DNA of 62,790 nt, the filler included, from Asterionella formosa (lineage: Eukaryota), in NCBI GenBank assembly GCA_002256025.1. It is 21 parts of 21 records of this genome, joined end to end, with 100 filler letters (N's around TTAATTAATTAA, not from the genome) between each part and the next. Parts side by side here need not be neighbours in the genome. Positions count along the whole stretch, not along the records: positions 56,470 to 57,653 come from NKIB01003823.1; 20 more parts are not named here. One strand, given 5' to 3'. The number at the start of each line of letters is the position of its first letter. The first letter of the stretch is position 1. Under the pieces are notes generated by a model. The model saw only the letters and a list, made by a program, of their open reading frames with translations, did no database searches and was not told where the DNA came from. This document shows positions 20,527 through 57,291 of this stretch, piece after piece. A program made the position numbers and the translations under genes.

Positions 20527-21712
20527 GCATCGGGTAGTGCCTGTTTTTGGGGTGACCAACCATCACTTTCAATGGAATACTCTTCTTCGAATCTAGTCTT
20601 CTTCAAACGAGATTGAACAGATGCAGAAGTCACGACATTTCCTTCGTCGTCCAAAAAAGAATCGTCGTAAATGAGTCTCAATGCTTCCCCGTAGGCTCGA
20701 TTGGCCATGACAGAGGCTAGAAGCAATCGTTCCGCTCGTGCGCATTCAAAAATGCCCGCTTGCAACATTTCCAATGCAGCTTTCCAGCGCATAGCATATT
20801 CATCTCGTTCCGAGGCATATTTGGCTCGTCGGCGAGTCTCAAATTTCAGCATGGCATTATATTGTATTTTTCGAAGTCGGTCGACCTCGTCATTGTCAGG
20901 CCGGGACATGAAGGGTAAATTCGTATTTTGCTGTGCAGTGTCGGCTGATTCTACTGATTCATACGAAGTCGCTGATGGGATAATAGGTGTTGCTTCTCTC
21001 GTTTCTTGTTGAATCGTTTCTTGTTGAACTTTCTGAGGACTTTTGGCCCGAGTTGCTTGGGACTTTGCCTCTTTGACCATCCTTGTAATGCGAATCGACC
21101 TCATCAAGTCATTCTTTGCTTTGGACAAGGGATAGCAAGGAACAAAGTAATAAGAATTCATGATCTTGCCATTATCATCCAGGACTCGATCTTCCTCTGT
21201 TATTTTTCCGTTAAGTTGCAAAAAGTTGAGATCTATGGGTTTGAGTGTTTTAGGAACTGGCCCATTGCTTTTCTTCTTGGTTGCATGAGCTTCCACAACA
21301 GTAGGATGAAAGTGGTGCAGGGCCACATAGTGAGCGCTTGCGTGTGCTTCATCCTCCTCGTCCTGTATTAAATCAATGAGTGCGCTCCCTTTGGTAAGAT
21401 GCCGGAGATAGGCCGTTCGAAGGCCGTTTTGCTCCCTGTCGGACTTCGTCTCAGGATTGACGACAAGATTTGGCAGCCGGACAAAGCCTCGTCGACGGTC
21501 ATTGAGTAAGGCAAACGCAGAGGAAATACCCTTGCATTCCTCGCTTTGGCCGCAAATGCAGACTTTGCCGTACGCGACGGCACCTGCATCGTGGTTGGGA
21601 TCTGGACCTCGAGATCCCGTCGTTCTGCTTCCGTTTGATCCAGTCCCCTGAGCGAGAAACAGGCTCTCACAGCCTTCCGAAGCCCCCGACGCAGATTCCT
21701 TCGAGTCGCATT
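20527..21712 (-). CDS. Partial hypothetical protein, open across the whole contig; THAP-like Cys/His region followed by a coiled coil (copy A)
   Basis: The frame stays open upstream of the listed GTG start: KVCICGQSEECKG...FVRLP...LRTAYLRHL...YVALHHFHP...YFVPCYP. Confidence 0.7.
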
Positions 21713-21936
21713 NNNNNNNNNNNNNNNNNNNNNNNNNNNNNNNNNNNNNNNNNNNNTTAATTAATTAANNNNNNNNNNNNNNNNNNNNNNNNNNNNNNNN
21801 NNNNNNNNNNNNGTGAAATAAGCTCAATGGGAAACGAAGAATGGTCCGGCAGCGACGATATTCTTCATCTGATATTCGGTAACACGAGACACATTTATGA
21901 TATTGGTATGATGTTCGCAAAGAAATCTGCTCATCA

Positions 21937-22185
21937 ATGTACCTACCGGTATGCTGGTACCTGGTACCTGGTACTCCCCAGGTACCGGTATTCTTACTCA
22001 TGGCATATCTGGTACCTGGTACTGGTACTGGCACCCGGTACCAGGTACCTGGTATACCGGTATTCCTTCTTACATATGTACTCCCGGTACCGGTACTCAC
22101 CTATGTTCCCGGTTTACATTTATACCACCACATGACCCTGGTCCCTGATCGAGTACCAGGTACCAGGTACCAGGTACCCTGGTAT
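21937..22185. repeat. Dense array of TA-CCGG/CCWGG/CTGG-TA units (putative footprint array)
   Basis: For example ggtacctggtacctggtac, ggtaccaggtacctggtataccggta and gtaccaggtaccaggtaccaggtaccctggta. Confidence 0.9.
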
Positions 22186-22998
22186 AACCGGGACGAAGAC
22201 CTGTCCCCCCCCTGTAAGGGTCGTTCTTATCATTTTTTTTCGTGTATCACGGAATTTGAATTTTTTTGAAAATGTATCAGCAACGGTAACTCGATTTGAA
22301 CTGAATTTCATTCATTCCAAAAGTGTCACTGTATCACTAATTTGTGATCACATTGTATCATGGAGTAACATGAATCTTCAACGGCAACTGGCTGGCGAAG
22401 ATCATGTGTATATCCCTCCGGAATATAATGATGGTCTTGATATCAAGCAACAACAAAATATAATTACCGGGAAACTAAATATAATATTAAAAACACACAT
22501 TTGCATGAATCATGTCGTTGCCATTTGATTTACTTGATGATAATGACGATGACAGTAGTGATCTTGATTTCTTCTTCCTCTGTCATTTAGCTAAGGAAGC
22601 AGAGGAAAAAGAACACTCATCCAAACGACAAAGGCGACGCTGTAAACGGCAGCTTCAGTCATCTGAACGACGACGACAACGAAGGCACAAGTGGCACCAC
22701 GAAAGAATCTCCTGGCAATCACATGTCGAGAAACTCAATCACGAGATTGCTTTCAAGAAGACATACAGAATGTCACACAGAGCATTCAAAAAACTCACCT
22801 CCATGCTGGAAATTCAGATTGCAGGGAATTATTCCAAATGTGGCACTTCTGAGCCCATAATTCCCGAAATTGTGGTAGCCATTGGTTTGCAATGGCTGGC
22901 TGGTGGCAGTTACATCGACATTCGTCATGCCTACGGTTGTAGCATTGCTTCACTTTATCGATGTCGTGATTTGTTCATTGATGCTGTACTAAACTGTG
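22186..22998 (+). mobile_element. PIF/Harbinger-type DNA transposon: 5' end and N-terminal transposase (ORF from 22512, cut by the contig end)
   Basis: FKKTYRMSHRAFKKL...PEIVVAIGLQWLAGGSYIDIRHAYGCS is typical of the DDE_Tnp_4 N-terminal HTH region. Confidence 0.8.
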
Positions 22999-23098
22999 NN
23001 NNNNNNNNNNNNNNNNNNNNNNNNNNNNNNNNNNNNNNNNNNTTAATTAATTAANNNNNNNNNNNNNNNNNNNNNNNNNNNNNNNNNNNNNNNNNNNN

Positions 23099-24284
23099 GC
23101 ATCGGGTAGTGCTTGTTTTTGGGGTGACCAACCATCACTTTCAATGGAATACTCTTCTTCGAATCTAGTCTTCTTCAAACGAGATTGAACAGATGCAGAA
23201 GTCACGACATTTCCTTCGTCGTCCAGAAAAGAATCGTCGTAAATGAGTCTCAATGCTTCCCCGTAGGCTCGATTGGCCATGACAGAGGCTAGAAGCAATC
23301 GTTCCGCTCGTGCGCATTCAAAAATGCCCGCTTGCAACATTTCCAATGAAGCTTTCCAGCGCATAGCATATTCATCTCGTTCCGAGGCATATTTGGCTCG
23401 TCGGCGAGTCTCAAATTTCAGCATGGTATTATATTGTGTTTTTCGAAGTTGGTCGACCTCGTCATTGTCAGGCCGGGACATGAAGTGTAAATTCGTATGT
23501 TGCTGTGCAGTGTCGGCTGATTCTACTGATTCGTACGAAGTCGCTGATGGGATAATAGGTATCGCTTCTTTCGTTTCTTGTTGAATCGTTTCTTTTTGAA
23601 TTTTCTGAGGACTTTTGGCCCGAGTTGCTTGAGACTTTGCCTCTTTGACCATCCTTGTAATGCGAATCGACCTCATCAAGTCATTCTTTGCTTTGGACAA
23701 GGGATAGCAAGGAACAAAGTAATAAGAATTCATGATCTTGCCATTATCATCAAGGACTCGATCTTCCTCTGTTATTTTTCCGTTAAGTTGCAAAAAGTTG
23801 AGATCTATGGGTTTGAGTGTTTTAGGAACTGGCCCATAGCTTTTCTTCTTGGTTGCATGAGCTTCCACAACAGTAGGATGAAAGTGGTGCAGGGCCACAT
23901 AGTGAGCGCTTGAGTGCGCTTCATCCTCCTCGTCCTGTATTAAATCAATGAGTGCGCTCCCTTTAGTAAGATGCCGGAGATAGGCCGTTCGAAGGCCGTT
24001 TTGCTCCCTGTCGGACTTCGTCGCAGGATTGACGACAAGATTTGGCAGCCGGACAAAGCCTCGTCGACGGTCATTGAGTAAGGCAAACGCAGAGGAAATA
24101 CCCTTGCACTCCTCGCTTTGGCCGCAAATGCAGACTTTGCCGTACGCGACGGCACCCGCATCGTGGTTGGGATCTGGACCTCGAGATCCCGTCGTTCTGC
24201 TTCCGTTTGATCCAGTCCCCTGAGCGAGAAACAGGCTCTCACAGCCTTCCGAAGCCCCCGACGCAGATTCCTTCGAGTCGCATT
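23099..24284 (-). CDS. Second near-identical copy (allele/haplotig) of the 20527-21712 partial gene (copy B)
   Basis: Same start and end bases, same length, ~23 substitutions by manual count and no indels. Confidence 0.85.
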
Positions 24285-27200
24285 NNNNNNNNNNNNNNNN
24301 NNNNNNNNNNNNNNNNNNNNNNNNNNNNTTAATTAATTAANNNNNNNNNNNNNNNNNNNNNNNNNNNNNNNNNNNNNNNNNNNNCGTTTATTTCTCCGTT
24401 CTGAATGATTGGACCATTAATAGCAGCAGCATCATGATCTACTAAACTATCAAGGAATAAACCATTATCATAGTCATCGGCATCAAAACAAACTGTTTGA
24501 ACGAAATCAATGGCTGCTGGCGATTGTTTCAGGAATTTTGCAAGGGGGTCTTGAGAGTGGTGTCGTCCATCTCTTGGAGAAGTCGCTACCATTGATGATG
24601 GCGGTTTCTTACCTCGTAATTAGGTTGATTTTTATCGTTCGTCCTGTGGAAGTGTAGAAACTTTGAGTGGCGCACACAAACAGCGATACAATTTTATAAT
24701 TTGCTTCCGGTCTCACACAGTACCAATCATAAGCCCCTTGGTAGCCACAGTTGAGAAGCAAAACAATCATATAACTTAACTCTTCCCACCGGTTGGTTTG
24801 ATAATAGTAGAAGGCTCTAGGTCACCATTCCCTCATCAGTTTGTTAGTATGTGGAACAGAACGCACCATTACCGGTATGAATTTTTTAACAATATCTCAA
24901 CATTTCCTCTTCTTTAAAAAGTGTGTATAACACACATCTCTGTATGTCTAGTAACTTTTTTGAAGGAACATTTAATACCCTACCAGTATGTATGGTTGGA
25001 TAAACAAGACTTAACAGGAATTCGAATACGGTACCCGATATACTTCCAGTTATCATATCCTATATAGTGGACAGTGCACACCATGTATCATAGGTACATA
25101 TACATACCATCAAATTTTACTGGTACCTGGTACTTACATGATGGAGGAATACTGGAACTTACATGATGCTCAGTAGAGTACAGTAATAGGACCTTGTACG
25201 TCACCGTTATCCAAGCAGGAACTACCCTGGTACCGTACATTTCGTCTATATTCCTGTTGGTACTGTTCTAACGTTCAAATTTGGTTACAGTATTAATCAA
25301 TACTACCGGTAAGTATTTGAACATGATTGAAAACACTTGAAGTTCATTATTATGACATAATGCCGAAGTACTCAGATAGGTAGTGAATGATAAATTAACA
25401 TTTCTGTATGATCTAAGAGACCAACTCCCTTTTTAATCTTGGCGCGCCAAAAATAATATCAGACTTTTCTCTTTTATTATTGTTTCATTCTTTGATTTTA
25501 AAGCATCAGCGGCCCATTTACCTTGACTCCTGTACATTGTTATCGTCATGTCCGGTAAAGGAATAAAAAGAAGCGATAATTCTAGAGTTGATAACTTGTC
25601 TCAGAAGAAGTACCGCAACAGTAACCAGGATGAAAAGACTCGGAAAAAAGCCTTCATATTCATGTCAAACATAGCAGGGGTTTGGTTACTCCTGCAACGA
25701 AAATGTCTCATGAGTATGAAGAGTTTGTAACAAATAAAACTGCTTCAACAAAGCAGCGAGATCATCATCAAGATTCAGACTCTTACAGTGATGATATTTT
25801 GTCAGAACTGTCCTCTCCTGGTAACAAGAAGGTGCCGCCTTTTTATCCACCCATTCAAAGAAGGAGTGACGATTCACCAGTCACTGACAATCCAAAGACA
25901 AATATTATGGAGTTACATCTCGATAATGGCAATGATCTCAAAATATATATATATATATATCACAGTTCCGCATTAGTCGTGAGACAGTGATTGATCAGAA
26001 GCATCATTATCCGTTGTTGATTCATGTTCAACAACTTCATAATAAGATTGCACTATTGGAACGAAAAATTTCCCTGAATAACTCTTCTATCAGGGGATAC
26101 AAAGATTCCAGCCTTGCCACTACTTTTTATACAAGACGAAGGGATAATACTTGGCACACATGTTTCAGCAGGATGTTTGTAAGACTGTAAGGACAATGAA
26201 AGTAAAAATGGTTGGTAACGATATCAAAAACAAGGTGATTTGAGGAGATTTAATTGTGTACATGAACTTACCTGGTGGGTGTGACAAGATTTTCCAGTAT
26301 GAAATATTTCACCAACTACTTCGGTTGCATGAGAGGAAGTTATCGATGCAACTATAGCGGTCACTTTGTGGAAAGTATATGTGTGGCAATGGGGTTAGGC
26401 TGTCCTATATAATGCCTCTGATGTTGCTGATAACAAAATTTCTTAAAACAATGGGATAGTATAATGTTATTAAGCAAAGTTAAAATTGTTATTTCGAACC
26501 CCCTGCTATTCAAGGTTAATGTGATGCTACTATTTACTGAATGAAATGAAGCTACTTCCTGATTAGTGATGTTGCAGCTCTAATTCTGCAGCATACAAAC
26601 ATGCTCGCCAATAGCTAGTCAATGAGAATGGAAGACCCATGGCTAATTAAGGCCATCAGCAACAAACTGCGCTGCCATCTGGTCCATCTTCACTTTGATC
26701 CACATCTCATCTTGAAGAACAGATTCGAAATACGGATCGATGTTCTCAATGGGCGAATTATGATCAAAAGGTACTATCTTCTTGATTTCGGCTGGAATTG
26801 GAAAATCGGGTATGCCCTTCAATGCATCATTCTCCAATTCTGTTGTATAAACTGACCAAAGCTTTTGATTTCGAGTAACAAACAAACAATCAAACTTCGC
26901 CAGCATAATTCCCCATCAATATCGAGACCATATCATTCGTTATAGGACTGAGATCATCGTCATCCTTTCAAGAAGGTAGCTCGTAAGGGATTCAACGAAC
27001 GCACATGGCTTGTGAGAAATTCGATTACTGATATGTGAATGGAGAGATAATGACGAATACTACCGGTACAAGAATTGGATCAAAGCATGTACCCGCATAA
27101 CATTCAAATCGGAATGGCAACAAGGAACGCACCATTGTTGCACAGAATTCATTCTGATAGCATCATTGGGTGCAAGGTTTACATACACGTAAGGTGATCT

Positions 27201-27289
27201 GTGTAAATTCATAAACTTCGTTAAAACAATAATTGATCAAAGAGGAACAGCTATTGATCAATCAACAACGTATCAATAGTATATCAAAA

Positions 27290-27605
27290 CATTTGGTTAG
27301 CACATTAGTTTTGATAACTAAAATATATGACTTCTATCTATGCGTAACCTAACGTGTGTAAGCAAATAATCTAACAAACAAAATTTGATTGACCACACCA
27401 ACAGGATCCTTGATATATCAAAATTATCATCAACATAACACAACATTTGATCAATATATCAACAATTTGGATTAGATTTGGTAACTAATATATACGATTT
27501 CTTATATACGCATAACCTAACGTGTGTATGCTATTAACCTGATGTACAAATTTGATTGATCATACAGACACTCCCAAGGATATATCAAAATTATCATCAG
27601 CATGT
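27290..27605. repeat. Diverged tandem duplication, period ~168 bp
   Basis: taacctaacgtgtgta at 27345 and 27513; gatatatcaaaattatcatca at 27412 and 27579. Confidence 0.75.
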
Positions 27606-29153
27606 CAAATATTAGAATAGTCAATCAGTTTTTTAACGTATGCTGAGTAAAACGTTGGATCTAATGGAAAATCTATTCACATACGTGGATGCTCAACGGT
27701 TCTTTATATCAAATCTGGCTATTGTGAACTCTACAATCAACAATGAAAAAAGTGCGACTACTACTTTCTACTCAATTCTACTGTGTGAAGCGTCCTTACA
27801 GCCTTGTTGCTCTTTGGCAGTTACTTGCAATCAAATAAATATTTGAGCACGGAAAAAATAATGATTCAAACAAAATTGCGGACTTTTTATGTAAATTTGT
27901 GGTAAAACCAGGATAATCTGACCACAAAGCAGCATAATTAAGTCATTAAACTTTCGCGATTGCTGGTTGGTCGATAAATATTGTCGCAAACCCAGATAAT
28001 TTCTGATGTGATTACATAATTATTCGATAAGTGAAATACAATTTATTTATAAACACATAAATCTTGGTTTGACCCAAATAAATTACGGAAAAAGTAACTA
28101 TTATTTCAGAAAAGCAACATAATATTGTAAGCAAGAAGTGACATACTTACATACATCGCATTAGACATAAATTCAAAAAAGTGCTGTAAACAGTGTCTTT
28201 GATGGATCAGGATATTGGTTGTAAAGAGTGGCTTTACCAAATGTAAACGAGATAATTAAGTAAAGTGAGCATTCGATGCTGTGATCGAATAATTACTGCT
28301 TTTCTGTAGTGATGTTGCACTCTACATTGCCTATGTGGCGTTTGTTCTTTTCATTTCTACAGTTATTGACCATAGTCCATCTATGATCACATGCAGGTGC
28401 TACCACAGTATGAGTATGTACATTGCCTAACAGGTGTCAAAGTTGTCGCAATCCTCATAGTCACTGCTGGGATCTCCTCTAATGATCCATCATCTTTCAT
28501 AAACTCCTGAAGTAGGCGCAGTTCCATGGGGGGAAATGCAATGTGAAGTCATCATATACACATTCATTAGCAAGGAAAACCATGATCCCTATCAGTTTGT
28601 TGCAACAAACTGGATTGTAAGTCATTGTGATGGTACCACCAACATTGGAGGTTCAGCCATCAAAAGGAGGGGGGTCATGAAAAGCTAAAATATTTGACTA
28701 TGGACAAAAGTGAAGAAATGGAATTAAAATATTCCTTAACCATTGGCCTACATGAAGTTCCCATTGAGGACATAGCAGGGCAAAATTTCCATCCATCCAT
28801 CATAAGGACTGCTCCTTGTGATAGAACTAAGGAATTTGTGAAACAAATTCCCAGCCTGTACCATGGTTTGTTGCTGAATCAAAGTGTAATGCACTGCATA
28901 TGTGCCAAGATCCTATGCAGTCAACATGTATAATTATTCATCTAGGGAATTGAAATCTGCTTTCAAACCGAACCAAACAAGAAACTGCAAGACATTCTCT
29001 CGGATGTCCACATTGCATTGCAAAATCAGCGCAAAAATAAAATTGACAAATCCCTATCGACTGCACAGTTGGCTTTCTTAGAGTTTTACGCTTTGAGGAT
29101 TCCAAAACACATACCAATACAATTAAAAAATTCACCACATCGTTTGTAAACAA

Positions 29154-30466
29154 TCATTTCGCCTCTCCGCCTTGAATAGTTGAATCGTCACTAAAGTAGA
29201 GTGATGATCCTACAGTCGGCACACCAGGAAGCTGTCCATCTTTTGGTTTGTCATCCTGAACATCGCTTGATGCCACCGCAACATCAGCAACCTGCGTCGA
29301 GGGAAGGTTCATTTTTGCTTCCTCATTTTGCAAGGCCACTTCAAAATCTTTCGCACTAACTCCTGGCTTGGGAGTTGCTTGACGTGAAGGCGAGGACCCA
29401 ATATTTTCAAGTTGCTTGTTTACGCTTCGTTGCACCGACGTTGCCACTGACTTGGCCGCCGATATGCCCAGATTAGCCACATGGCCAATCGATTGATTGA
29501 CCATGGCCGCAGTATGAGAATTGGACATGATGGAAAGACGGCTCATGATCTTGGCCGAGGACTTTCGCATGGCTTCATTGGTGGCAGATGTCTTGTGGAC
29601 CCTTCGGTTATCAAATGTAGGGCAGTAGGACAGGAGTTTGCCATTATTGTCTGTTTCAAATACGTCGACGATAGTCATAGTTACCAAATCTCCAACCTGC
29701 AGTCTATCCTCAGGGTTTATTTCCTCATGAGACAAGGATGCAAATTCATTCATCCAACTGTTGTTCGTTGGATGAATAGAAACAAGTCAGCAATGACGTA
29801 TCAATCAAACAGAGTTCGCAAGATCAAGTATACTCACGTCCACACTACTCGATGCGCCGCCGTCACTCTATATCGACCACCTGCTATTCGCATAACAGTC
29901 AATCCAGGTGGGTCAATAATATTCAAATGATCCCCACTGGGCATGATTGCCAGCCATCTAAGAAAGAGCTGCGATAGAGCAGGCACCCCGGCAGCCGCTT
30001 CCAATTCAATCCCCTCCACGCGTTCAATCCCGAATAATTGCGAAGCTGTATGAGCCTGTGGTAAAACAACCTCCGCGTCATCAGCAAAGACGACAAAGGG
30101 AAGCGGCGTTGTTGCTTCTCCTTGTACGTCGGTTATAGTGTCGCTTTCATACTCTGCATTCCATTCTTGCAGCGTCGTTGCACCTCGGGGTGGATGCGAT
30201 TGTAGAGCCCGCTGAAATTCTTCTGGATTGCTCAACAAGTACAAAAGTGCGAGATGCATTTCGTGGACCGTGGCGGTTGCATCGTGGTAATAAGGGAATC
30301 CGCCTGTCACTATAGAAGATGCAGCGACATAGGAAGAACCTTCGTCAATTTGTTCTGAATAGTCCATGGAGCCTGCGATACTCGACTCGGGCTTCCCAGG
30401 TGGCGGACCACTGCTCCTCTCTAGGGCATACGGGTTGAGCTTATCGCTACTTGACAAACCATTCAT
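29154..30466 (-). CDS. Hypothetical protein, two exons (30466-29838, 29757-29154)
   Basis: An 80-nt GTGAGT...AACAG intron (29837-29758) joins two ORFs in frame as YRVTAAHRVVWT-WMNEF; probable start MNGLSSS at 30466. Confidence 0.75.
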
Positions 30467-30910
30467 CGTCAATATTGCTTTTACTCTGCAGTCGACTGCA
30501 AGGAGAATCGCCTTGCTCGCAACAGGGATCAATGTAGCCGTCCACTAGGAATTCAATCGCGGAACTTAACTTATCTGCCTCCTCCTTACAGTCTGTTGAA
30601 GCCTATTCCCAGGGCTGCTGGACAACGGATTAAGTCAACGAATCACAACCCAAAAGGTACCAAACGAAGGACAAAGCGCAAAACAATTGGGCGTTTTACT
30701 CCTTGTTGCGATTGCCTTGCTCCCAAACAAAGCAAGAATGTGGAAGTTTGTGTCGTAGGAACTGCAATGTTGGGAGAACTCGCCGGCGAGTTGACGTTAT
30801 ATGGACCGTTGGCGGTTATCTGGTTTTCTGGCTGACAGTCGTCGGGAAGGCTAAAGTTAACACCTGGATCTTCGTCAAAACTACACCACCCATCGCTCAA
30901 CACAACAATA

Positions 30911-32167
30911 CCAGCAAGTTGCGGTAATTTTGCTGAAACTAAGGATTTAGCTATCTTTATCCCAGATTAAAATGTTAGTTTAAGGTTGCGGCCACGCAGT
31001 TACACAATTCGAGGTCCTTTTTTGCCAAAATAATTTTATGATGTAAATTAATCCACACATTACATACAAGTACATTAAATAGTTAAAGGTAAAATTAGCT
31101 TTCACCAATACAACCACTTTGCACAAGATACAGTCATGGATCGACTTAGGGGTATGTTCTATCTTCGGATATGGTAGGGACCTCATTTCTGGAAAGAAAC
31201 TGCAGTTATGTATCATAGAATCGTAACTATGGCAAAAATAGTCAAAAAAGGGGCTACGAAGCTTTTCTAAAAATCGACGAGGGATAACTGCAATTTCTCT
31301 CCCCTCCTGACGTTATAGGGTACACAGCGCGCTATCTACTTTAATCTTGATGAAACCCTGCAGATGTAGAGCAATCCTCCTCCAAAAAGTGGACCCGATC
31401 AGCTTTTTCAACAGTCGCCAAAATATTTGAATCGGAATTTGTATGTGCAAAACGTTCTCGTATACTCAGAGTCTTGCATAGGTATGTTTTGCTGCATAAT
31501 TCTCAGTCTTAAAAGAATCCAGGGTAAGTTGCCGCTTCACTACATGTATTCTGATTGGTTGAATTGAATTTACTCACCTGCTCCAGATTGGCTGAAGTAT
31601 TCCGGTCTTGTAAAATCATGCCAGCCACACTTGAACCACACGTATTAGATGTACCATACCAGCAGGTAAAATCAGCACTGGTACACCAGTACTAGTTTCA
31701 TCCTGTCTTCCATCATCATACATGAACCGCAAATGTGTACTACCAGGTACCGGTACATCGGTACCAGGTACTCTGGTACTTTGGTACCTGGTACTGTGCT
31801 GATCTTTATTAAACCAACATACTGCAGTGTAGATTTAATATAACGTGTAAACACGAACCATGAGCATACATGTTGGCATACTCCTGATTTATACATGTGT
31901 TTTGGCATTGAGCAAAATCATGTCTACAAACAGCAATGTTGATCTAGTATTAACATTCAAATATCATTTTTGTTTGCTTAAAACGGAACTCTATCAATCT
32001 GGTGCCGATTCCTATTAAATTTAAATATTCAAATGGACACTCGAATCATTGGAATTATAGTAGGAAACTCCCTGTTCCACGCCGTTTTTACAACCCTAGC
32101 GATATTTTCTCCAAACTAGGGTTAAGCCGGGACCGCAACCTTCAGCCAAATGACCGCAACTTGCAGG
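30911..32167. mobile_element. MITE copy split by a nested ~1.16-kb element
   Basis: ta|ccagcaagttgcggtaatt... at 30911 and ...gccaaatgaccgcaacttgcagg|ta ending at 32167. The two halves rejoin to the MITE consensus. Confidence 0.8.
30984..32140. mobile_element. Non-autonomous TIR element (GGTTGCGG...CCGCAACC), possibly Kolobok-like with a TTAA target
   Basis: Inverted termini ggttgcggcc / ggaccgcaacc, flanked by TTAA and TTCA. The internal part recurs at 48759-49540, and a similar right end occurs at 9931-9946. Confidence 0.65.
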
Positions 32168-32653
32168 TACCAGGTAGCTAGCAACATGGTGAATATGATA
32201 CGCATGGCACTACCTGGTAGGAGTAACTATTAACCAGGGTACCAGTTCCAGGTACCTGGTACCAAGGGGGATGCCAGCAAAGTTTGAGTTTCAGCAGAAT
32301 TACCGGAACTTGCTGTACCGGTACCAGGGGGTACCAGGTGCCAGGTGCTTTCAAATCATGAGTGTGGTATACAAGGCACTGGTACCAGGTACCCTACCCT
32401 GGTGGTACCTGGTACCCTGGTACCAGGAGGAGAACGGAGAACGACCGCCCCTGGTACAACTTATACTTTCTGTGTGTACCACCCCTACTGTAAGAGCAAA
32501 GCACATACCGGTAGTCTACTCCTACATACACAAAATCCAGTTATGGCGGAAATACATGCACTCAGAGCACCGGTACATTTGAAATGTCGTCTGTGTTGTC
32601 ACAATGCACATATAATATCGCAGGATCTCGTTGATGGCCCAACAACCGCAACA

Positions 32654-33424
32654 ATGGAGTCCAAAATAAAGATGAAATTAATGTCGATCTTTTGTCTTCT
32701 CATCCTATCAGTAGAAGCGCACTTTTCTCAAAATGCATGGAGGCCGGCAGGTCCTCCGGGATCACGGCGAAGCTTCTCTGTGGCCCGCCGAGGGTCGTTG
32801 TATGCGCCTCTTCAGAATCAAGTCTTGTTGGCATCTTCGCTCATAGCAGAAGGGCCAGAAGATGAAATCGACTACTTTGAACCCGACGAGGGGGATGTTG
32901 CAAAAGAAATAGAAAAGCGTGTGGAATTCAAGGACTTGTCTCTTGGGGGCAAAATTGTCGCTGGGGGTTGGTCGATTGGACGTACTCTTGTTCAACAATA
33001 CATTGGTGGGTTTGTATTCGGTTACTTTCTTGGTAGTCTTCGTGGCATCCCACATTTACTCTTCAAAAAAGAGGGACTCATGGGAACTCCATTCCTGGAA
33101 GAAATCCCTATGCGCTTTAGTCGCTGGACTGGCAAGGCCTTCCGATGGGGGTGCACTTGGGGTCCGATAACTGCTGCCTTTGGTACCATGGACGCGACAA
33201 TTGTGGTCTTGCGAAATGGAGTCCAAGATAATATCAATCTATACTTGAGCTCGGCTGCGGCTGGAGCCTTTTATGCTAGGGCAGGTGGGCCAGTCAAGAT
33301 GGTGATGAACGCTTTGCTTTATGGAGGGATGACTTATGGATTGACATGGGTGAGTGCCAATATTTTGACAGGTCCAGCTCCGATCACAGAAGCAGAGTGG
33401 TTAGGATTAGAGGAACAAGAATGA
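32654..33424 (+). CDS. Tim17/Tim22/Tim23 (PRAT) family membrane protein with an N-terminal signal-like peptide
   Basis: GGFVFGYFLG...WGPITAAFGTMD...LRNGVQDNIN...SSAAAGAFYARAGG. Start MESKIKMKLMSIFCLLILSVEA; the upstream part of the listed ORF runs through TACCWGG repeats. Confidence 0.7.
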   Translation: MESKIKMKLMSIFCLLILSVEAHFSQNAWRPAGPPGSRRSFSVARRGSLYAPLQNQVLLASSLIAEGPEDEIDYFEPDEGDVAKEIEKRVEFKDLSLGGKIVAGGWSIGRTLVQQYIGGFVFGYFLGSLRGIPHLLFKKEGLMGTPFLEEIPMRFSRWTGKAFRWGCTWGPITAAFGTMDATIVVLRNGVQDNINLYLSSAAAGAFYARAGGPVKMVMNALLYGGMTYGLTWVSANILTGPAPITEAEWLGLEEQE

Positions 33425-35566
33425 GTCATGTACTAGGTAGATAGCAAAGATAATTGAGTATCGACTGAGTCCAAAAATTACAATTTATTTGGTGAATTAT
33501 CTACCTGGGGGATGTCAGCTTTCGTGTCCGTTCTTTGGTGCTCTAACAGCTGCCTGATAGATACCCTTCAGCTGACACGAACTTGTGCACGGTTGACTGT
33601 ATCGGACAATAAACTAGGCTACCGGTATTGTGATTAGGTGGTGAGCGAGCAACCAGTGGCTTTCCCAATAAATATCTCGACACGCAGCAACAGGTTATGA
33701 AAGACTGGAGGCGAAGATAGCGGTGAATTAGCCTACCGGTACCTGGTACCAGTACCGGTTTTGCTGATGCATGTTTCCCCAGATGCATGGGTTCATACAT
33801 CATATTTAGTAATGACGCAACGTCATGCACATAATAAAATCGTACTCTGCCTTTTGTTCCTTTTTCTCGTGAAGGGCGGAGACTTGAACTTCGAAAGATA
33901 CCCCGCAACATGTTACCAGCGGTACCGTACTCAATCTGGTTCTCATTCAAGTACACCCAGAAACAGTCGCACTTACATATCAGTAACATGTCTGTACTGG
34001 TACCAGCAAGGTCCGATAGTGCACGTTTAATACCCACTTTTTCAGTTTTGACTCACAGCCAATGATTCATCCCATGCCTACCAAAAGGGTCAGGCTATCT
34101 TTCCATTCCAATCACTCTCAAGTAACTTTGTTTGCCATTTAATATCATTTAGTAAATCCAAGTCATCTTTTATCGTGTTCAACTACTTCTACAGGTGATA
34201 GTATTCAGGAACTGGAAGATGGTTTCATTATAGAGTTCACAAATTGCTCAGTAACTTCTGGTCGTAGTAAGCAAATTCTATTTGTCGTCAGCAAGTTCTA
34301 GTTGTTTTTAGAAAATTTCTAGTCATAAGTAGTCATCAACTGGATCAGTACTAATAACAAAAGAGTCATTTTTAAAATATCAATGGACTATTAATTTATA
34401 TATTGTTCAAGAAAGAATCAAACAAATTTGGTTTGACCTACAGATTACTGTAGTTTAGCGTGTTGCATGCTGTGAAAGTGTTAAATCTTGGCTATTGTAA
34501 CTTGCTTTGTTGTTTTGAATTGTGCATCATTGCTCTAAACTATGTGAAGCAATATACCATTGGCGACATCAATTTTCGTTGCCAATATTAGTGTTATTAC
34601 AATTATTTTTTAAGATTTTCAAAGTTGTGTTAGATATATTTATCAAATAGCATAGCGTAGTTTTCTTTTTCCATGGAGAAATTCATTATTTTCGTCATGA
34701 TCAAGGTGGAGACAGCATAATACAGGATTCTCCAGCTGCTCACCACAACAACGACTACACTTCAACATTTTATAAATAGAAACAAATCACAACATGCATC
34801 TAAGCTTAACAATTATTTATTATTGTCTACAAGGGGGCAGGGCTACCTCAGTTACCCTGAGCATATATCCTATACAACCATACTATGTATATGTGATATG
34901 TATGATTTTTTGCAAATATTCCGGTATCTAGTATGCTATTGCATCATGCGTGATAATGACTGTGACCACCGAAATATGTAGGGTGTATAGACATAACGTC
35001 ACATATGTTCATAGAAGTAAAAACCATGGCTATTAGGGAGAATATAGCACTACTGGTACATAGTTGTGTTTAGTATTCATGTAGATACTGGTAGTAGTTT
35101 GGAAGGTAAAACATGAATAGGGCTGTAAAGTTGGCACAGGGCAGGGAATTTATTTCTGTGTATTTTCATGATGCAAATATGTGCCTTAATACTTAAACAA
35201 GTAGAAATTGGCGCTACATTGATAGTCTTCCATTTCAAACAAAATGACAACATTTATGTTATATCTTACTCCCCCCGAGCACATTTATAGACTAGCTATA
35301 TATACCACGAGCATATAATCATCCTGCTTCTACAAAATCTTGGTTCTCCTTTGAGCAACAAAATAATGTCGAAACGAATGAATCAACCATGCGTTCTGTT
35401 GCCATCTTCCCTAGTGAATGAATCTCCTCTTCCATAAAATCATGTTCCGTGCCCTACTTGTATTGATTGTGCCATTGTTGATTCAGAAAGTGAAGGCTGT
35501 GGGAATCTCATCTTCTGTGAATGTTGTGACTTCGCATGACCAGAGTGTCAATGTCAATGGGACGAG

Positions 35567-35815
35567 ATGATGGAGTTAGTTGAGCTATGCATGGAGACAG
35601 ACTTGCTGCAGCTTCGGCTTGAAGAAGATGTTATAACACTGGGTCAAGCAAGAAACCTTGTATATAAGTTTCTTGTCAAGACATTCTGTGGTTTGTTGGG
35701 GAAGAACATTTGCATGGAACTTCCAGATTGTTGCTGTAAGGGGGGTTCAATTGCTTCTCATGAATAAAGATCACAAAGGAGAGTATACTGCTGGTTTCCA
35801 ACCAGTTTCTAAAAG
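35567..35815 (+). pseudogene. Frameshifted remnant resembling the P2X7 C-terminal/KolX-like cysteine domain
   Basis: RNLVYKFLVKTFCGLLGKNICMELPDCC, then after a frameshift GEYTAGF; fits the R..Y...G.LG...R..LP.C...GEY.GF pattern. Confidence 0.4.
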
Positions 35816-36448
35816 GATTAAACATAGTAGTAGCAAATGAATGTTTGTCATTCATTAATTCTATTAGGTTATATTTGAACTTGTCATTGCATTGCTGAAA
35901 ATATTTTCAGTCTTACAATCTATAATGTTAAAAAACATCAGTGAATATTCAAACCTTTCAATCATAGACATTAAACAATTAAAAATCATAAACTATAGTG
36001 CATTTACTACCTGCAATATTATGAAAGGTTCAGGTACCCATCTCCATTCCTCGATTGGAAATGGTGGCAAAGGACGCCACACACTCGAAGATGCGCCTGA
36101 TGAAACAAAATGGTTTGACGAACCAAAAACACTGGCTGATGCCATTACCTGGTACCAGGTACCTGGTACTCCAGGGTACCCCTGGTACCAGGACAACAGA
36201 AGTTACAAAACAGTGAGCATACGGATGACGTATGTTTTTCAGAGAATATCTGTATCTATACGTTGACAGTTTTTGGTACCGGTACCAGGGTACCAGGTAC
36301 AGGTAGACCAGGACCATTTGGTTGATTGTCTACATACCGGTATGCAGATACCGTCTAAACTATGCAAACCTACTCATAGAATGAATGCACCAAACATCAT
36401 CACTCTTGCATCGGAGACGGGTAAAATAAGTTCTTCCAATTGATTATC

Positions 36449-38227
36449 ATGGCCATGAGGTCCACAACAGCAGTTATCCTCTTCCTCATAGCGCAGTCCT
36501 CCCTGGCATTTCTAATTCAACGAGTGGCCAAGCCCAAAACATCAATTCAGCCAACAATATTTACAAATCCGTTGCTTGCGCTGTCATACTACTCGACAGC
36601 TCGTTTCTCCTCCACCAGAAACAGCTTTGATGAAATATGCGACGTGTTGGTGTTGGGGAGCGGCCCTGCTGGTCGCGCCATTGCTTCTCTACTCGCCCAA
36701 AAGGACTTCAGCGTCATACTAGCTGACTCGAACTACGATCGAGCGTTCCCACCCAATTACGGAGTCTGGAAGGACGAATGGCAGGCTGTCGTGGAGAGAT
36801 TCAAGGCGGCTGGAGTTTTATTGAAGGGGGGAGACGTGGGATCGGCCATTAACCGAGAATGGCAAGTGACAGACTGTTATTTCGGAGGCTCTTTTGATGT
36901 TCCCATGGAAGAGCGCATGCGATTGGATCGGCCCTATTATAGAGTCGATAAGAATGCTCTCAAAAGCTCGCTATCAGATACAGGTTACAAGGTTCTGTAT
37001 GCAAATCACGTATCAAAAGCGATCGCACCGAATATATACACTCCAGCGGGTTCTTTAGTGCACGACGAGGAAGGGACAACCATTTTGTTGAAATGCAAGG
37101 ACGGAAAGGAAATGTCACTTCGCTCCAAACTTGTCGTGGACGCGACAGGACACGAGACTCAATTGGTGTTGAGAGACACAAGAGCACCAGCGAATAACCC
37201 ACCAGGATTTCAAATTGCCTATGGAGCCACAATGGAACTCGACGAGACCAATATTCCATCGCTATCCATGTTTGGACCATACGATAAGGAAGCCATGACG
37301 CTATTCGATTATCGAACGGATCACTTTGATGGTGATGATGTGGAAATGAAGAAGGGCATCACATCTCCAACATTTATGTATTGTATGCCTTTGGTTGGTA
37401 ACAGGGTCTTTTTTGAAGAAACGTCGCTTGTTGCTCGACCTGGCGTCAGCTTTCAAGAATGCAAGGATCGATTTTTTCGTCGACTTAGATACCTTGGGAT
37501 AACACCAATAAAGGTGGAAGACGAAGAGTTTTGCTACATACCCATGGGAGGTTCTCTACCAATTAAAGACCAACGAGTGATTGGATTAGGTGGTGCTGCA
37601 GCAATGGTTCATCCTTCTACAGGCTATCACCTGTGTAGAATGATGATAGGCGCATCTGACATGGCTCGAACAATTGAGGAGGAGCTTAAGGCCTCAGAAG
37701 TCAATCTCAACCGGGCTGCCGCCAATTCTTACCATAGCCTCTGGACTCCTGAAAACATTCGTCAACGCAACTTTGCCGTCTTTGGTGGTGAATTTCTAAT
37801 GAATCAAGATGTAGTTGGCCTGAGAGGATTCTTTGGCGGCTTCTTTCGTTTGCCTCTGGAATTGTGGGCTGGTTTCTTGGCTGGTTGGCCTGGATTGCCC
37901 AACAATGACAAACACGAGTCGTGGACTGCAAGAATGTGGTTTGGGCTGAACTTCGTCATTCGAATTCCACCAGCGGTCGCTCTGTCGATGGTGTGGTCTA
38001 TAATTAACTACAGCATATCTGAGGGTGCCCCGTTGCCACAGTCAGTGACGCCGCTGTTTGGTGAGCCAACCAGTTATGAATACCAAGATGCATTGAAGGC
38101 AAATATTGGGGATGTAGCCTGCAAGATTGAGGCAAGAAAAATGATTCTCCAATCGAAAGTGGAAGAGGTCGTCCCTGTGGCATTCGAAGAGGAAGTTGCG
38201 AAACAAGAAGAAACGACCTTCCAATAG
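36449..38227 (+). CDS. LCYB: Lycopene beta-cyclase, plastid-targeted
   Basis: DVLVLGSGPAG, PNYGVWKDE, FFEETSLVARP, EFCYIPMGG and GGAAAMVHPSTGY; signal peptide followed by SLA-F. Confidence 0.93.
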   Translation: MAMRSTTAVILFLIAQSSLAFLIQRVAKPKTSIQPTIFTNPLLALSYYSTARFSSTRNSFDEICDVLVLGSGPAGRAIASLLAQKDFSVILADSNYDRAFPPNYGVWKDEWQAVVERFKAAGVLLKGGDVGSAINREWQVTDCYFGGSFDVPMEERMRLDRPYYRVDKNALKSSLSDTGYKVLYANHVSKAIAPNIYTPAGSLVHDEEGTTILLKCKDGKEMSLRSKLVVDATGHETQLVLRDTRAPANNPPGFQIAYGATMELDETNIPSLSMFGPYDKEAMTLFDYRTDHFDGDDVEMKKGITSPTFMYCMPLVGNRVFFEETSLVARPGVSFQECKDRFFRRLRYLGITPIKVEDEEFCYIPMGGSLPIKDQRVIGLGGAAAMVHPSTGYHLCRMMIGASDMARTIEEELKASEVNLNRAAANSYHSLWTPENIRQRNFAVFGGEFLMNQDVVGLRGFFGGFFRLPLELWAGFLAGWPGLPNNDKHESWTARMWFGLNFVIRIPPAVALSMVWSIINYSISEGAPLPQSVTPLFGEPTSYEYQDALKANIGDVACKIEARKMILQSKVEEVVPVAFEEEVAKQEETTFQ

Positions 38228-38637
38228 GCAGGTAAATAGCATGCTGAACTATTATGCTTGTCTAAAATTTGAAGGACTATGCACTAGCTATGTAGAGAAT
38301 TTAACAGCTATTGCTTTGAAGTAAATTTCAAGCCTCGAAGACAAAGGTGGATGGTGGTCAACAAATCAAAAACGTTTTGAGGAGGGAAACCACCAACAGA
38401 GAGGCCGTTCAGAAAATTTATTAAGCAATTGATTGTGACTCTTAGTCGTGCCATTAGAGAATAAGCAACTGTTATTGAGTTTCGAGAAACGATGCAGTTT
38501 TTATGCATTTAGTTAGCTGTCTTCCTGGGGTTTTCAGTCTCCTATTGGAAATAGTGAAGTAGACCTACGATATGGAAGAATCAAGAACTAGATGGTTGGT
38601 ATCCTTCTACTTTCAATGATTTCCTCAACCCAGTTAG

Positions 38638-39369
38638 CTAGATAAAGACAGTCTTCGCCTGAAAATCTTCAAATTGCTCAATTTCCAGGTTCTTCTTCTT
38701 TTTTTTTTCATTCTTCTCGCCGATATTACTTTGTTGTTGTCGGTCACCCTTGGAAAAGAATTTCTTCGCTGCTAGTTCTAAATCTCTATCTGCCTCATAT
38801 ACATGAATTTCTCCAAAGGAATAGTTCTTTCTCGAATCGCCGTATTCCATGCTCACCTCGCTGCTGTCATCATCGGATCCCTCATCAATCTGACCCACAG
38901 ACGAAAATACACCCCGGCCATCCTTGATTCGTCTCAAATCTCGACGCCTATCCAGGCGACTATCTGGGCAAATGCCACATTGAATAAAGCAATTCCAAAA
39001 TATCCATATGAAAAGTAAGACAATCGATACGTAACTAAAGCCTTCAACCATGTCAAAGGCAAGTGAATCTTTGGCTATGTAGTTTTCAAGGTTGTACCAA
39101 GGTTTTTGCTCAGTGGGGAATGGTTCTGTGAATAAATCGTCATCATCCTCATCAGCTCCCTTAGCTTCGAGATGCCTCGATACATAAATCGGCTGTGCCC
39201 GGGCAGACGCAAGCTCGGTGGCAGCTGAAACAAATAGTAACATCATTATCTCGATACGCGTTGTCAGACTCCAATGCCATCCATTCTTCGGCCCTTTGGC
39301 ATTTCTATACTTCGTATCCCTTTCGCCAACCTCCGACAAAATGAGAGGGGATCTGCTTGCAGCAAACAT
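38638..39369 (-). CDS. Hypothetical single-pass membrane protein
   Basis: 243-aa ORF with a signal-like segment (MMLLFVSAATELASA), one hydrophobic helix (YVSIVLLFIWIFW), a CxxCGIC motif and a charged tail. Confidence 0.6.
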   Translation of the reverse strand: MFAASRSPLILSEVGERDTKYRNAKGPKNGWHWSLTTRIEIMMLLFVSAATELASARAQPIYVSRHLEAKGADEDDDDLFTEPFPTEQKPWYNLENYIAKDSLAFDMVEGFSYVSIVLLFIWIFWNCFIQCGICPDSRLDRRRDLRRIKDGRGVFSSVGQIDEGSDDDSSEVSMEYGDSRKNYSFGEIHVYEADRDLELAAKKFFSKGDRQQQSNIGEKNEKKKKKNLEIEQFEDFQAKTVFI

Positions 39370-39866
39370 GATGATTTATCGATTCCAACCAGACCCACTC
39401 CATCAATTGATTATCTGTTGATGTTTGTGACAATGAAGAAATGGAAGGACATGAGGGTCACAGTTTTTCAGCCAGCATTCCTCAAGGTTCCTGCATTTCA
39501 ACCCTAGATTAGAGGTAGGGTTAAAAAATAATATTGAGTCAGACTAATCAAACACATACTTTTCACGTCTAAACTAAATATTATTGTGCCCGTGTAGTAC
39601 CGGTACCAGGTACCAGGTACCTACCTGCTGAGCGATCCTGCACATTGATACAGATGTATATAGGGTTAGGGTTATATCAAGTATATCAGAACTCAATATT
39701 GAGAGAACTCGACTAACACCTAGCTACTGTATACTTTGATGTCGACTTAGGAAACGAGTAGTCAATAAGGATAAATTAATAAAATCATATATTCAACAAA
39801 TACTACTTCTTCTAGTTAGATACTTCACTTTGAATTCAGAAAGAGTCCAATTAGAACAAAACAAAC

Positions 39867-42800
39867 ATGGCAATGTATTCAAGGGTTCCTGTCATTCCTT
39901 TGATCAAAGATTACAATTTATTGACTAACAAGGCTAATACATTCAGAGTTGCTTTAACCGGTGGAGGGTTTGAATCGTTTGATCAAGATATTATTGATGG
40001 AAGCTCTGTGGAAGCATTGTTGATTGGAGTGAATCAATTTCATGACAGGGCCAACACATGTGCCTTGTCTAGCCCTGCAGATACCTATTCCGACTTTAAA
40101 AGGTGCTTGACCGACATTGTCTTATCGGATTGGTTGAATGTGGAAGTACACCCAGAAGATCAATCCTACAATAGTTTCGATGAAGTGATGGTTTTATGGT
40201 TAGATGATCATTTACCAAACGAAAGTTTTCAACGTCAACAACAATGGATGCTTCACTATTTATCTAAACCCTTTTCTATGTTGGCAATGGATTTCGGAGC
40301 TCGCATTAAAACTTTGAACAGGCTACGTCAACTAATTCCTCATCCAGAAGGTCAAAACGGATTGTCAAAAGAAGATATGCGGATTATCATCATCTGTTCT
40401 ATGCCCGATGAGTGGCAACAAGAGTTCGGAAAGCTACCATACTGACATTGCTAACCCTGCGTCTGTTCCACTTTCTCGCGTGCTAAATGCATGGGTTCAT
40501 AATACTCATCCATCCGGTTGGGGTAACGTGCCATGTGCCGACCCTACCAAGAATACATCTGCCCAGGAAATTTCAGTGGTCACGAACCCTCCTACTGGCT
40601 GGTGGTCAGCTAGTGACTTTTGTCCCTACTAGTACACAACAGCAGATTGCTGATCGCCATCACAGAGGCATGTGCGATAATAGCGATGCTGGTGTTTGCT
40701 TATAATGACTCATTGAGTATATCTCACATTAGTCATCACCTAAATTATATTGTTTATTTACAGGTTGAATCCACTATGAATACTACCGCTGTTACTGCAA
40801 CGCGGGACATATATAAATGCATCGATGGACATGACGTCCCACATACATATCAGGGCCCGACTCAGGTTTCCTGTTTTACTTCTAAGGATATAGCTAACAA
40901 TGTAAATTGATTTGATTACGATGTCACTTTTAGCGCCATGATTGGTGGATGCTATACCTATGCATAAAATACTACAAATATTATTTGATAGTGGAGGATC
41001 CTTAGTACTATCCTTAATACATGAACGGGTTATGCCTCGAGGTGGCTCTTTGTCTAACAAAAATTCTCAATTAATGCATACTAACATAGCTGGTACATAT
41101 TCATCTCATGCCAGTGTTATTTTATATGACCTGATTCTCCCTGAATTTAACTGATCTGTTCGTATTTTGCAACAAAAGTGTCAAGTTTTGGCTTTAATGG
41201 TCTCTGCACATTTGATGCTATTTTAGGACGTGATTTCCTTTGTCAAGTTGGTTTTACCATTGATTTCGTAAATAACACCATGTCCTGTATGGATATGATT
41301 GTTCATATGGATCCTCTCACATTCTTTGATGATGGAGAACGTTTACGTGATGCATTATTGCATTTTGATGCACCTATGATTGTGGAATCTTCATATGCAC
41401 TGGAAATTAAAGCTGCTGAAAATAATTACGTAAATATTGATACAGTGGTGAATGAAAAAATGCATTTGACAACAATGCAACGGTCATGTTTACGAACTAT
41501 ATTGGTTAGATATCAACATGATTTGATGGAAAATTATAAGTTTATCCTCATGAACAGGTACATTTGAAATTATTATCAAATGCCATCCCTTGTCATCAAT
41601 GAGCATATCCGGTCGCTCATATTCTTTTAGAAGTTTTCAAAAGCGAATTACAACGGTTCTGTGATATTGGAGTCCTAAAAAAATGTGGTGCTTCTAAATG
41701 GACGTCTCCCACTTTAATTCTTCCTAAAAAGGATGTAAGTGTCCGATGGGTGTCAGATTTTCGTGAACTCAATGAAGTCATCAATCTCAATATGTACCCT
41801 TTACCTCGAATACAATATATTCTCAATAAACGTGCTGGGTATGTATTTTTCACCAAATTGGATATTTCTATGCAATATTATACCTTCGCAATAGATGTGG
41901 AGAGTCAAAATTTGTGCCTCATTTCCACTCCATTTGGTTTATATGAATATTTACGTCTCCTTATCATGGGAGTGAAACAATCATCCGACATTGCCCAGGA
42001 AACTATGGTGCAGATTCTTAGTGATTTAGATGATGTGAAAATTTATATTGATGATGTGGGTTGTTTTTCAATGAATTTTCCGGATCACCTTCATCTATTG
42101 GACACTATTTTACATCGTTAACAGGTAAATGGTTTTACAATTTATCTATCTAAGTGTGAATGGACAGTCCAAGAGACAGATTGGTTAGGCTATTAGTTCA
42201 TAACTCCTAATGGACTGAAACCTTGGTCTAAAAAGTTCCGAGCATTGATTAAAATGTCTTCACCTACCAATCTTTAACAAGTTAGATCGTTTCTCAGTGC
42301 TGTTACTTACTATCAAGACATCATGTTTCCTAGACGATCTCATGTTCTTGGACCACTTATGTATTTAACTGTTACTTTTCCATTTGTCTGGTTACCTATA
42401 TATCAACAACCTTTTGAAGAAATGAAAGCATTGTTGGTTGCAGATACACTCATGCGTTATCCTGATCATAATCTTCCTTTTCATATCTTTACGGATGCCT
42501 CTGATTATCAATTAGGGTCGGTCATTATGCAAAATGATCTCCCAGTTGCTTATTATTCTCGCAAATTATCTGCTGCTCAAAAGAATTATACTACTATTGA
42601 AAAAGAATCACTTTCTGTCGTAGAAACTTTCAAAGAATTTCGCTCCATGTTATTGGGTGCAGTTGTTCTACATGTTCACAATGATCATCGAAATCTTATT
42701 TATAATACTTTACACACTCAACATGTTCTACGGTGGAGACTTTATATTGAAGAATATCATCCTACTTTTCACTATGTGAAAGGTACTGACAATGCTATTG

Positions 42801-43100
42801 CAGATTCCATCTCTCGCCTCCCAAGGCTTGAGTCTTTGGTGGGAGATGATATTGGACCGAAATCTCCAGTATCAACATCCAGCCACTCCTACCTTTTCAA
42901 TTGAATTAGATGATGAACCTTTGCTTAACAGTTTACTTAATCATCCAATCTTGACAGACGATATTCAATATCCTCTGGATTATAATCTAATACATGATAG
43001 ACAATTGCTGGATATACAATTGATTCTCAATCAACAAACACATCCGTTAATATTACCCTCTATCAACTTTCATGGTATATTTTTAAAATGTTTTGTGAAG
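39867..43100 (+). mobile_element. Degenerate Ty3/gypsy LTR retrotransposon (gag, protease, RT, RNase H; integrase missing)
   Basis: Gag-like 39867-40445, protease ILFDSGG and ILGRDFL, RT SDFRELN..YPLPRI..KLDISMQYY..YIDDV, RNase H FTDASDYQLG..YTTIEKE..N.IADSISRL. Gypsy domain order, with many stops and frameshifts. Confidence 0.92.
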
Positions 43101-43514
43101 GATGCGGGAGATACGTTCGAAGCAGAAGTTGCCTTCTCTCTGGATCTCGTTCCCAAAATCGAGGAGGTGCCAGCGATGTTGGGGCTAGTCCATTCAGCAC
43201 AAGAATCAGCACAGCGGAGGTGGTGGAGCTGGGGCTGGAGGGAAGCGTGACGATGCATTGATTGGAAAGACTGTTCGAATCCAAGCTGGTCAGTGGAAAG
43301 GAGGTTACCTTGGGACCGTTGCAGATGCAACTGCAACACATGTTCAAGTCGAATTACACTCGCGTCTCAAGAAGATCATGGTTGTTTGTGAACGTGTTGC
43401 CGTTGCTGGGGACAAGTTTGGTTCTACTGAAGATCCAACAAGGACCCAAGCACCCTCACAAAATTCAGCAATGGCCGGTGGTGCCACTCCTTTTAATAGC
43501 GGGGGAGCAACCCC
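43100..43514 (+). pseudogene. SPT5: Frameshifted fragment of transcription elongation factor SPT5 (KOW5 and start of the C-terminal repeats)
   Basis: VRSRSCLLSG...KRDDALIGKTVRIQAGQWKGGYLGTVADATATHVQVELHSRLKKIMV...GGATP; frameshift near 43205. Confidence 0.75.
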
Positions 43515-56701: not shown

Positions 56702-57121
56702 TGTCAACGTCGTCTTGAAGGTAAAAGAAGTTGTCTGATGTTTATTCGAGCTACTTCTTGTTCGGTTCTTGTTCGAAGGTTGTGTCAAAAACTCCTTTTC
56801 TCGTCAGCCCTAACTGTAAGGACTCGTCAGTGACCAAATAGGCTGTAGATATGAACAACGAGGTTGCACGTAATCGATTCCTAAGAGTTTTAATAGAAGT
56901 ATGAATTTTGGTGGCGATGTAGATTGTTTCGAATTCTGAGTTTTCTCTGGTACCGGTACCATATTCTTTCTTGATTCATTCGATTCAATATGTAGTACCG
57001 GGTAGGTAATTCTTACCGGGATTTTTCTTTCCAAAAATAATTTCTCCAACACTCTCCACTCCTGCTGGGAGTTCCGGGAAAGCAAGTCCGAATATTGCGA
57101 ATATTTGTCCGAACATGCAGA

Positions 57122-57230
57122 CCGGCGGCAAGTTGCGGTAATTTTGCTGAACTAAGGATTTACCGGTAGCTGGTTTTATCCCATATCGAATTGTTTATTT
57201 ACCGGTAAGCCAAATCACCGCATCTTGTTG
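57122..57230. mobile_element. MITE copy carrying two internal CCGGTA insertions
   Basis: cggcaagttgcggtaattttgctga...caaatcaccgcatcttg; TACCGGTA at 57161-57168 and 57200-57207. Confidence 0.85.
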
Positions 57231-57291
57231 TTGTACCTTCAACCAGCGGTCATTTTCACCCTAACCCTAACCTTTTGAGTAATTACTAGTT

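Follow-up and report, generated by a model that had tools for sequence, protein, structure and literature searches.

The six-letter additions that turn TA into TACCGGTA in the genome of Asterionella formosa are real derived insertions, and plain TA is the state of the repeat family in which they were noticed. Based on sequence comparisons, we suggest that TACCGGTA is very probably the end-joining footprint of TA-targeting pogo elements of the IS630-Tc1-mariner superfamily. The type of event is known; its scale and its chaining are unusual here. The window that we analysed is a stretch of 62,790 nucleotides composed of 21 contigs and the linkers between them, from a 68.4-Mb assembly of 15,436 contigs; sequencing runs that match the window carry the labels algae, freshwater or lake metagenome.

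Derived insertions at plain TA sites

The family comprises a short MITE with terminal inverted repeats and many copies, the 96-bp form of which reads TA-CC(A/T)GCAAGTTGCGG…CCGCAACTTGC(A/T)GG-TA, and a longer sister element (family B) that has a like start and an arm of ~570 bp. TA duplication by the MITE was judged from the TA on both of its sides. The following features of the window are relevant.

373 to 479, minus strand: MITE copy whose terminal repeat contains a scar with one mismatch (455-462)
5992 to 6083, minus strand: MITE copy in which each of the three sites is plain TA
30909 to 32169, plus strand: 96-bp CC(A/T)G-ended MITE, interrupted by a nested element, in which the 57161-type site is plain TA
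30984 to 32140, plus strand: the nested 1.15-kb element (family G) with TTAA-GG…CC-TTAA ends, an independent neutral substrate that holds the three-state site
32168 to 32176: TACCAGGTA unit into which the right TA of the MITE at 30909 to 32169 runs
56951 to 56958, no strand assigned: TACCGGTA in the upstream repeat, a +6 scar at GG-TA-CC, in paralogs C13170 and C12482 and not in C5148 and C4040
56996 to 57004, no strand assigned: TACCGGGTA, a +7 scar within the upstream repeat, in C13170 and not in C12482, C5148 and C4040
57122 to 57257, plus strand: 5' head of a truncated family-B element, the longer, non-autonomous type with CC(A/T)G ends, hosting the two scars below
57161 to 57168, no strand assigned: the more recent TACCGGTA scar, at a GATT-TA-GC site, missing in C12482 and in 102 of 105 copies
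57200 to 57207, no strand assigned: the earlier TACCGGTA scar, at a TT-TA-AGC site, common to C12482 and C13170 and missing in 95 of 98 copies
57258 to 57272, plus strand: a pair of telomere-like CCCTAA units where the element is cut off and the paralogs carry on with element sequence

Both words at 57161-57168 and 57200-57207 are present as an earlier note on this DNA had reported, and so are the plain counterparts that it had set against them, aaggattTAgc at 30941-30951 and tattTAagc as the reverse complement of 6007-6015. The insertion that it described in the copy at 373-477 has one mismatch: positions 455-462 are TATCGGTA, which is TACCGATA on the strand of the element. The element at 57122, which the note took for the MITE, is actually the head of the longer sister element.

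The family state was read from a sample of 106 copies, in which "plain" covers substitution variants and which some of the searches had enriched for inserted alleles. At site 57161, 102 of the 105 covering copies have no TA-duplicating insertion and three have TACCGGTA; site 57200 is plain TA in 94 of 98 copies, with TACCGGTA in three and TAAATA in one; and at the GCGG-TA site, plain TA in 96 of 104 copies is accompanied by five cases of TACCGGTA and one each of TACCGGGTA, TACCGATA and TACTGGTA. Because the sampling favoured inserted alleles, its bias runs against the plain-TA result, and the prevalence of plain TA at all three sites despite this enrichment identifies the shorter copies as ancestral. 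In other words, the reverse polarity, with a long consensus and short copies derived by deletion, is not what the family displays, while TA-duplicating +6 insertions into an ancestral TA are borne out as independent events, also in other repeat families.

A correction concerns the history of the insertions at 57161 and 57200, which arose successively within one lineage. The paralog C12482, with 93% identity over 562 columns, has the insertions at 56951 and 57200 and lacks those at 56996 and 57161, whereas C13170 and the window have all four; C5148 and C4040 are alignable to the upstream repeat only. This locus gained its four insertions in steps. An unrelated copy, C13437, also carries a 57161-type insertion, by either recurrence or conversion. 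Fragments coding for Armadillo repeats adjoin the locus and its paralogs (L031 1006-1184; L144 4026-4955).

The nested family-G element, which we take to be Kolobok-like, gives a view of the same process in a second repeat. Among 27 aligned copies, seven of 12 distinct six-base insertions duplicate TA. One TA of this family is plain in 21 of the 24 copies displayed, substituted in two and replaced by TACCGGTA in one (C12566), and in C15001 the end of a pogo element of the P1 family (described below) is joined to family G at this very TA. This single site, found among 105 P1/P2 ends examined, compares paralogs rather than alleles and involves one P1 end only, of 140 bp. The contrast of "filled" and "empty" sites drawn earlier is best amended: the empty site is TA, as proposed, but the filled site is TA-element-TA and TACCGGTA is best taken as a third, post-excision state. 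A possible second three-state case, C7530, was set aside as ambiguous because TACCGGTA is common in other copies of that repeat. Family G is abundant, and its middle is a hot spot where GGTACC arrays grow.

Abundance, chaining and decay of the probable scars

Genome-wide, TACCGGTA occurs 28,528 times compared to 1,718 for a reversed-pattern control, and TACC(A/T)GGTA 26,886 times compared to 902; with ~55,000 exact copies together, they are the top TA-bounded words. The window alone contains 35 copies of TACCGGTA, while an order-3 Markov model predicts 1.8; the abundance of the word is thus no product of chance. Both words avoid coding DNA. ORFs of at least 300 codons have one TACCGGTA and no TACC(A/T)GGTA in 64,505 bases, as opposed to 106 and 112, respectively, in the 184,635 bases outside long ORFs; the single copy in ORFs is a candidate for an in-frame scar in a protein.

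In 858 kb, we polarised 233 insertions of 3-12 bases, shared ones being collapsed. Of 35 six-base insertions, 22 duplicate TA, 16 are TACCGGTA and four more are one base off; the 16 seven-base insertions include three TACC(C/G)GGTA and two TACC(A/T)GGTA; and TACCGTA, the +5 product resembling that of Sleeping Beauty, is rare, with one of nine five-base insertions, which speaks against the footprint reading proposed below. In a 531-kb run, TACCGGTA was found in 10 of 157 derived events and in one of 474 ancestral ones. One-mismatch forms of TACCGGTA are in excess (162, with 103 exact copies, in 230 kb; controls 28-46), and the scars therefore span a range of ages. The words TACTGGTA and TACCAGTA (44 in 230 kb) may not be scars of their own kind but TACCGGTA that has undergone CpG decay.

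Scars can be chained, with 35 of 221 chains having 2-4 units. A next unit abuts 31% of TACC(A/T)GGTA sides and 22% of MITE ends, compared to 1.9% of all TA. Chained seven-base units are oriented at random: 12 neighbours have the same and 12 the opposite orientation in tiles that total 230 kb, and the corresponding numbers for 858 kb are 48 and 52. Scar arrays are dense in the window at 21813-22998, within a region (20471-24340) in which the contigs at 20527-21712 and 23099-24284 have matching ORF layouts and are probably alleles or duplicates. Elsewhere in the window, 41178-43514 contains a retrotransposon reverse transcriptase/RNase H fragment with a Pfam match at 42323-42904.

Another footprint-like class consists of a dinucleotide duplicated around C, G or GC, at TA, CA, GA, AG and AA; the core is C or G in 66 of 107 three-base insertions and GC in 16 of 55 four-base insertions. 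We dropped TA(C/G)TA (+3) as a candidate pogo scar because the identical cores sit between other duplicated dinucleotides.

Candidate donors, proposed mechanism and alternatives

A DDE_1 profile search of the genome gave 93 matches, among them young DD35D pogo families that end in TA-CCG…CGG-TA. The P1 element is 2.46 kb long, starts with TA-CCGTAAAACC and has copies that are up to 99.9-100% identical; its 420-aa ORF encodes a transposase with a DDE_1 domain and a D-D-35-D triad (D202, D320, D356), and nearly all of its 80 homologs are unnamed. Terminal inverted repeats and TA duplication were both found, and homologs of a full-length P1 site that are empty have a single TA. The start TA-CCGTA is shared by P1, P2 and two further families, while P3 begins with TA-CAGTG. 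Genome-wide, the P1-type end pattern has 95 matches and its control one. P1 also has a second ORF of 130 aa on the strand opposite to the transposase, which has no Pfam match (L090 826-1218, plus strand).

For the MITE, a DDE_3 profile search for a transposase was empty, the 40 DDE_1 loci read among the 93 matches had no MITE-type ends save for MITE pieces alongside, and the interiors of long family-B elements contained host genes, a retrotransposon and presumably Crypton-like fragments. Thus, neither these 40 loci nor the longer family-B elements include an autonomous element with MITE ends. Long inverted pairs of family-B arms, separated by 0.6-7 kb, are also present, in a foldback-like arrangement (L055 1501-3016; L045; L059; L137 120-7222), with ORF fragments in L137 of a type that we presume to be Crypton-like. 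Most of the TA-bounded families found begin with CC; one of ~0.8 kb has CCAGTAAAAAACTG-like ends (loci C9023, C12173 and C5997).

The cores of the scars equal the terminal bases of these resident TA-targeting elements, i.e. the CCG…CGG pogo ends and the CC(A/T)G MITE ends. Transposases of Tc1/mariner elements cleave precisely at the 3' ends of the element and 2-3 bases within its 5' ends (PMC2170065), and after end joining a footprint lies between the two copies of TA (PMC2874221); the footprints given are 2-4 bp for Tc1/mariner (PMC7913693) and 0-4 bp for the DD35D pogo element Passer (PMC9976928). If the elements studied here behave like their superfamily (PMC2170065), an element that has inserted at TA and duplicated it would upon excision leave 2-3 of its terminal bases as 3' overhangs on each flank. 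With CCG…CGG ends, the CCG overhangs could pair via CG and be filled in to give TA-CCGG-TA (+6), and a one-base slip would give TA-CC(C/G)GG-TA (+7). MITE ends, which are mostly CCA on one side and CCT on the other, could be held by a single A:T pair to give TA-CC(A/T)GG-TA. An overhang of three bases would explain all three words, while an overhang of two would yield TACCGGTA only. The allele series at the GCGG-TA site (CCGG, CCCGG, CCGGG, CTGG and a double CCAGG) is a spread of repair products at one TA, as end joining gives. Each scar would also create GG-TA and TA-CC sites, for which CC(A/T)G elements have a preference, and we suggest that by this feedback scars chain into GGTACC-rich arrays, with selection probably keeping them out of coding DNA.

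The flanks of the scars link them to their putative donors. Sides of unchained TACCGGTA (n=806) fit P1/P2 ends (n=100) with p about 4e-5, all flank p-values being rough, with both sides of a palindrome counted and coding DNA included among the background TA sites. A at -3 is found in 39% of the unchained TACCGGTA sides and 43% of the P1/P2 ends, with a background of 31%. TACC(A/T)GGTA flanks fit MITE ends (rough p 7e-5 for all sides and 0.03 for unchained ones) and not P1/P2 ends (rough p 0.36-0.42). At -1, G occurs in 73-81% of TACC(A/T)GGTA sides, 44-56% of MITE ends, 31% of unchained TACCGGTA and 30% of P1/P2 ends. MITE ends, too, score above background with the flank profile of TACCGGTA (rough p 0.002), and the assignment of donors is therefore not clean; some TACCGGTA, judging from these profiles, may come from the MITE family. 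Taken further, this leads to the proposal that the CC(A/T)G-ended MITE rather than the CCG-ended pogo makes most TACCGGTA by the same mechanism with two bases per end. Exact MITE ends, 655 genome-wide, outnumber the P1-type ends. However, the frequency of G at -1 separates unchained TACCGGTA from MITE ends and places it near P1/P2, the +7 variant TACC(C/G)GGTA requires CCG ends, and it is a P1 end that is found at the three-state site. We therefore regard the MITE as an unlikely source of most TACCGGTA and favour excision of the pogo elements.

Scars outnumber exact element ends ~40-fold for the MITE class and ~300-fold for the P1 type, an excess that calls for prolonged turnover, donors beyond those counted or abortive events. 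It would be accounted for if the insertions arose outside a full transposition cycle, by abortive integration or cutting of TA by the transposase, or by templated addition of CCGGTA or CCAGGTA during repair in a telomerase-like manner. Templated addition at breaks may occur in this genome, in which the telomere-like units mark the break at 57258 and TAACCCTA is enriched in a 200-kb sample (19 copies, with an expectation of 1.6), a hint that telomeric units are added where the DNA breaks internally. Such addition predicts units arranged head to tail in a single orientation, and the random orientation of chained units argues against it as well as against slippage; moreover, words and flanks match element ends family by family, and a pogo end lies at a TA for which a different copy has the scar. 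These observations make an origin without the full cycle improbable. Still less probable is that GGTACC-rich DNA grew by replication slippage or palindrome expansion, with the product possibly kept as a transcription-factor site, even though arrays of tandem units exist and TACCGGTA is identical to a described oomycete promoter motif: the flanks at 57161 and 57200 have no CCGG to copy, and the insertions sit within decaying repeats. Slippage is thus contradicted for isolated scars and may still lengthen some arrays.

A restriction-site linker or another artefact of library or assembly might be suspected in an assembly as fragmented as this one (15,436 contigs), and TACCGGTA contains an AgeI site. 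Contigs from independent lake runs (studies P2, P3 and P8) span the words at 33620, 36277 and 36335 and have no gap there, and we exclude an artefact on this ground. The shared, nested inheritance of insertions among paralogs, the excess of decayed forms and the avoidance of ORFs likewise leave this explanation with a negligible probability. Four lake runs were also aligned to 24400-40500 for TA, scar and filled alleles; repeat copies dominate the matches, and two contigs with 6 and 11 gap letters at 33187-34201, among the matches listed, are a hint only. Thus, the excision footprint of pogo elements remains our preferred explanation.

Probable footprints, promoter motifs and known systems

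Footprints are usually invisible in finished genomes. Here, ~55,000 exact scars record past element sites, and with their site preference and their decay they make cut-and-paste turnover countable. Binding sites could then originate in the footprints of transposons and not in their bodies, if a wider scenario is true that we consider possible but doubtful: heavy cut-and-paste traffic, with scars targeted again by the elements that make them, would be the main source of short non-coding words in this genome and of a new class of GGTACC arrays, and the same process would have seeded the oomycete motifs TACCGGTA and TACATGTA, later adopted by factors like PsMyb37. The part concerning words and arrays in this genome has support here; the oomycete part is speculative. 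The scars also call for caution in motif discovery in genomes of this kind, and the young native pogo elements are possible tools for algal genetics.

Three oomycete studies list TACCGGTA (M94, motif-9, streme-5) and TACATGTA (M93, motif-1) as promoter motifs (PMC3597505, PMC10031896, PMC3520976). The word TACCGGTA is identical in the two settings and in both is non-coding and abundant; unlike here, the motifs are interpreted in these studies as transcription-factor sites. A footprint origin of TACATGTA in Phytophthora was rejected for its abundance and conservation (PMC3520976), and TACATGTA is described as bound by PsMyb37 (PMC11134190). Given the abundance of scars here, abundance alone, one of the grounds given in PMC3520976, is no argument against a footprint origin. 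Our searches of the open-access literature listed no paper that describes TACCGGTA as a footprint across a whole genome.

P1 is similar to the DD35D pogo elements (Passer, and groups 33-40 of PMC7325037) in its DDE_1 domain, D-D-35-D triad, TA duplication and short terminal repeats, and differs from those described in its second, opposite-strand ORF of 130 aa that matches nothing in Pfam. A close parallel to the MITE is the pogo-like Emigrant/Lemi1 system of Arabidopsis, for which PMC1636448 takes empty sites with extra terminal-repeat bases as footprints; that system has two such cases and a known autonomous partner, while no partner was found for the MITE in the loci covered here. More generally, the scars resemble the footprints of Tc1/mariner elements (Tc1, Sleeping Beauty, ZB), which consist of TA, a few bases of the element end and TA (PMC2874221, PMC2170065, PMC7913693), with taCATGta for Tc1 as cited in PMC3520976. 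In those systems, however, footprints are rare or products of assays, whereas two forms are present here in ~55,000 exact copies, a four-base core dominates over the three-base type of Sleeping Beauty and the scars are chained into arrays.
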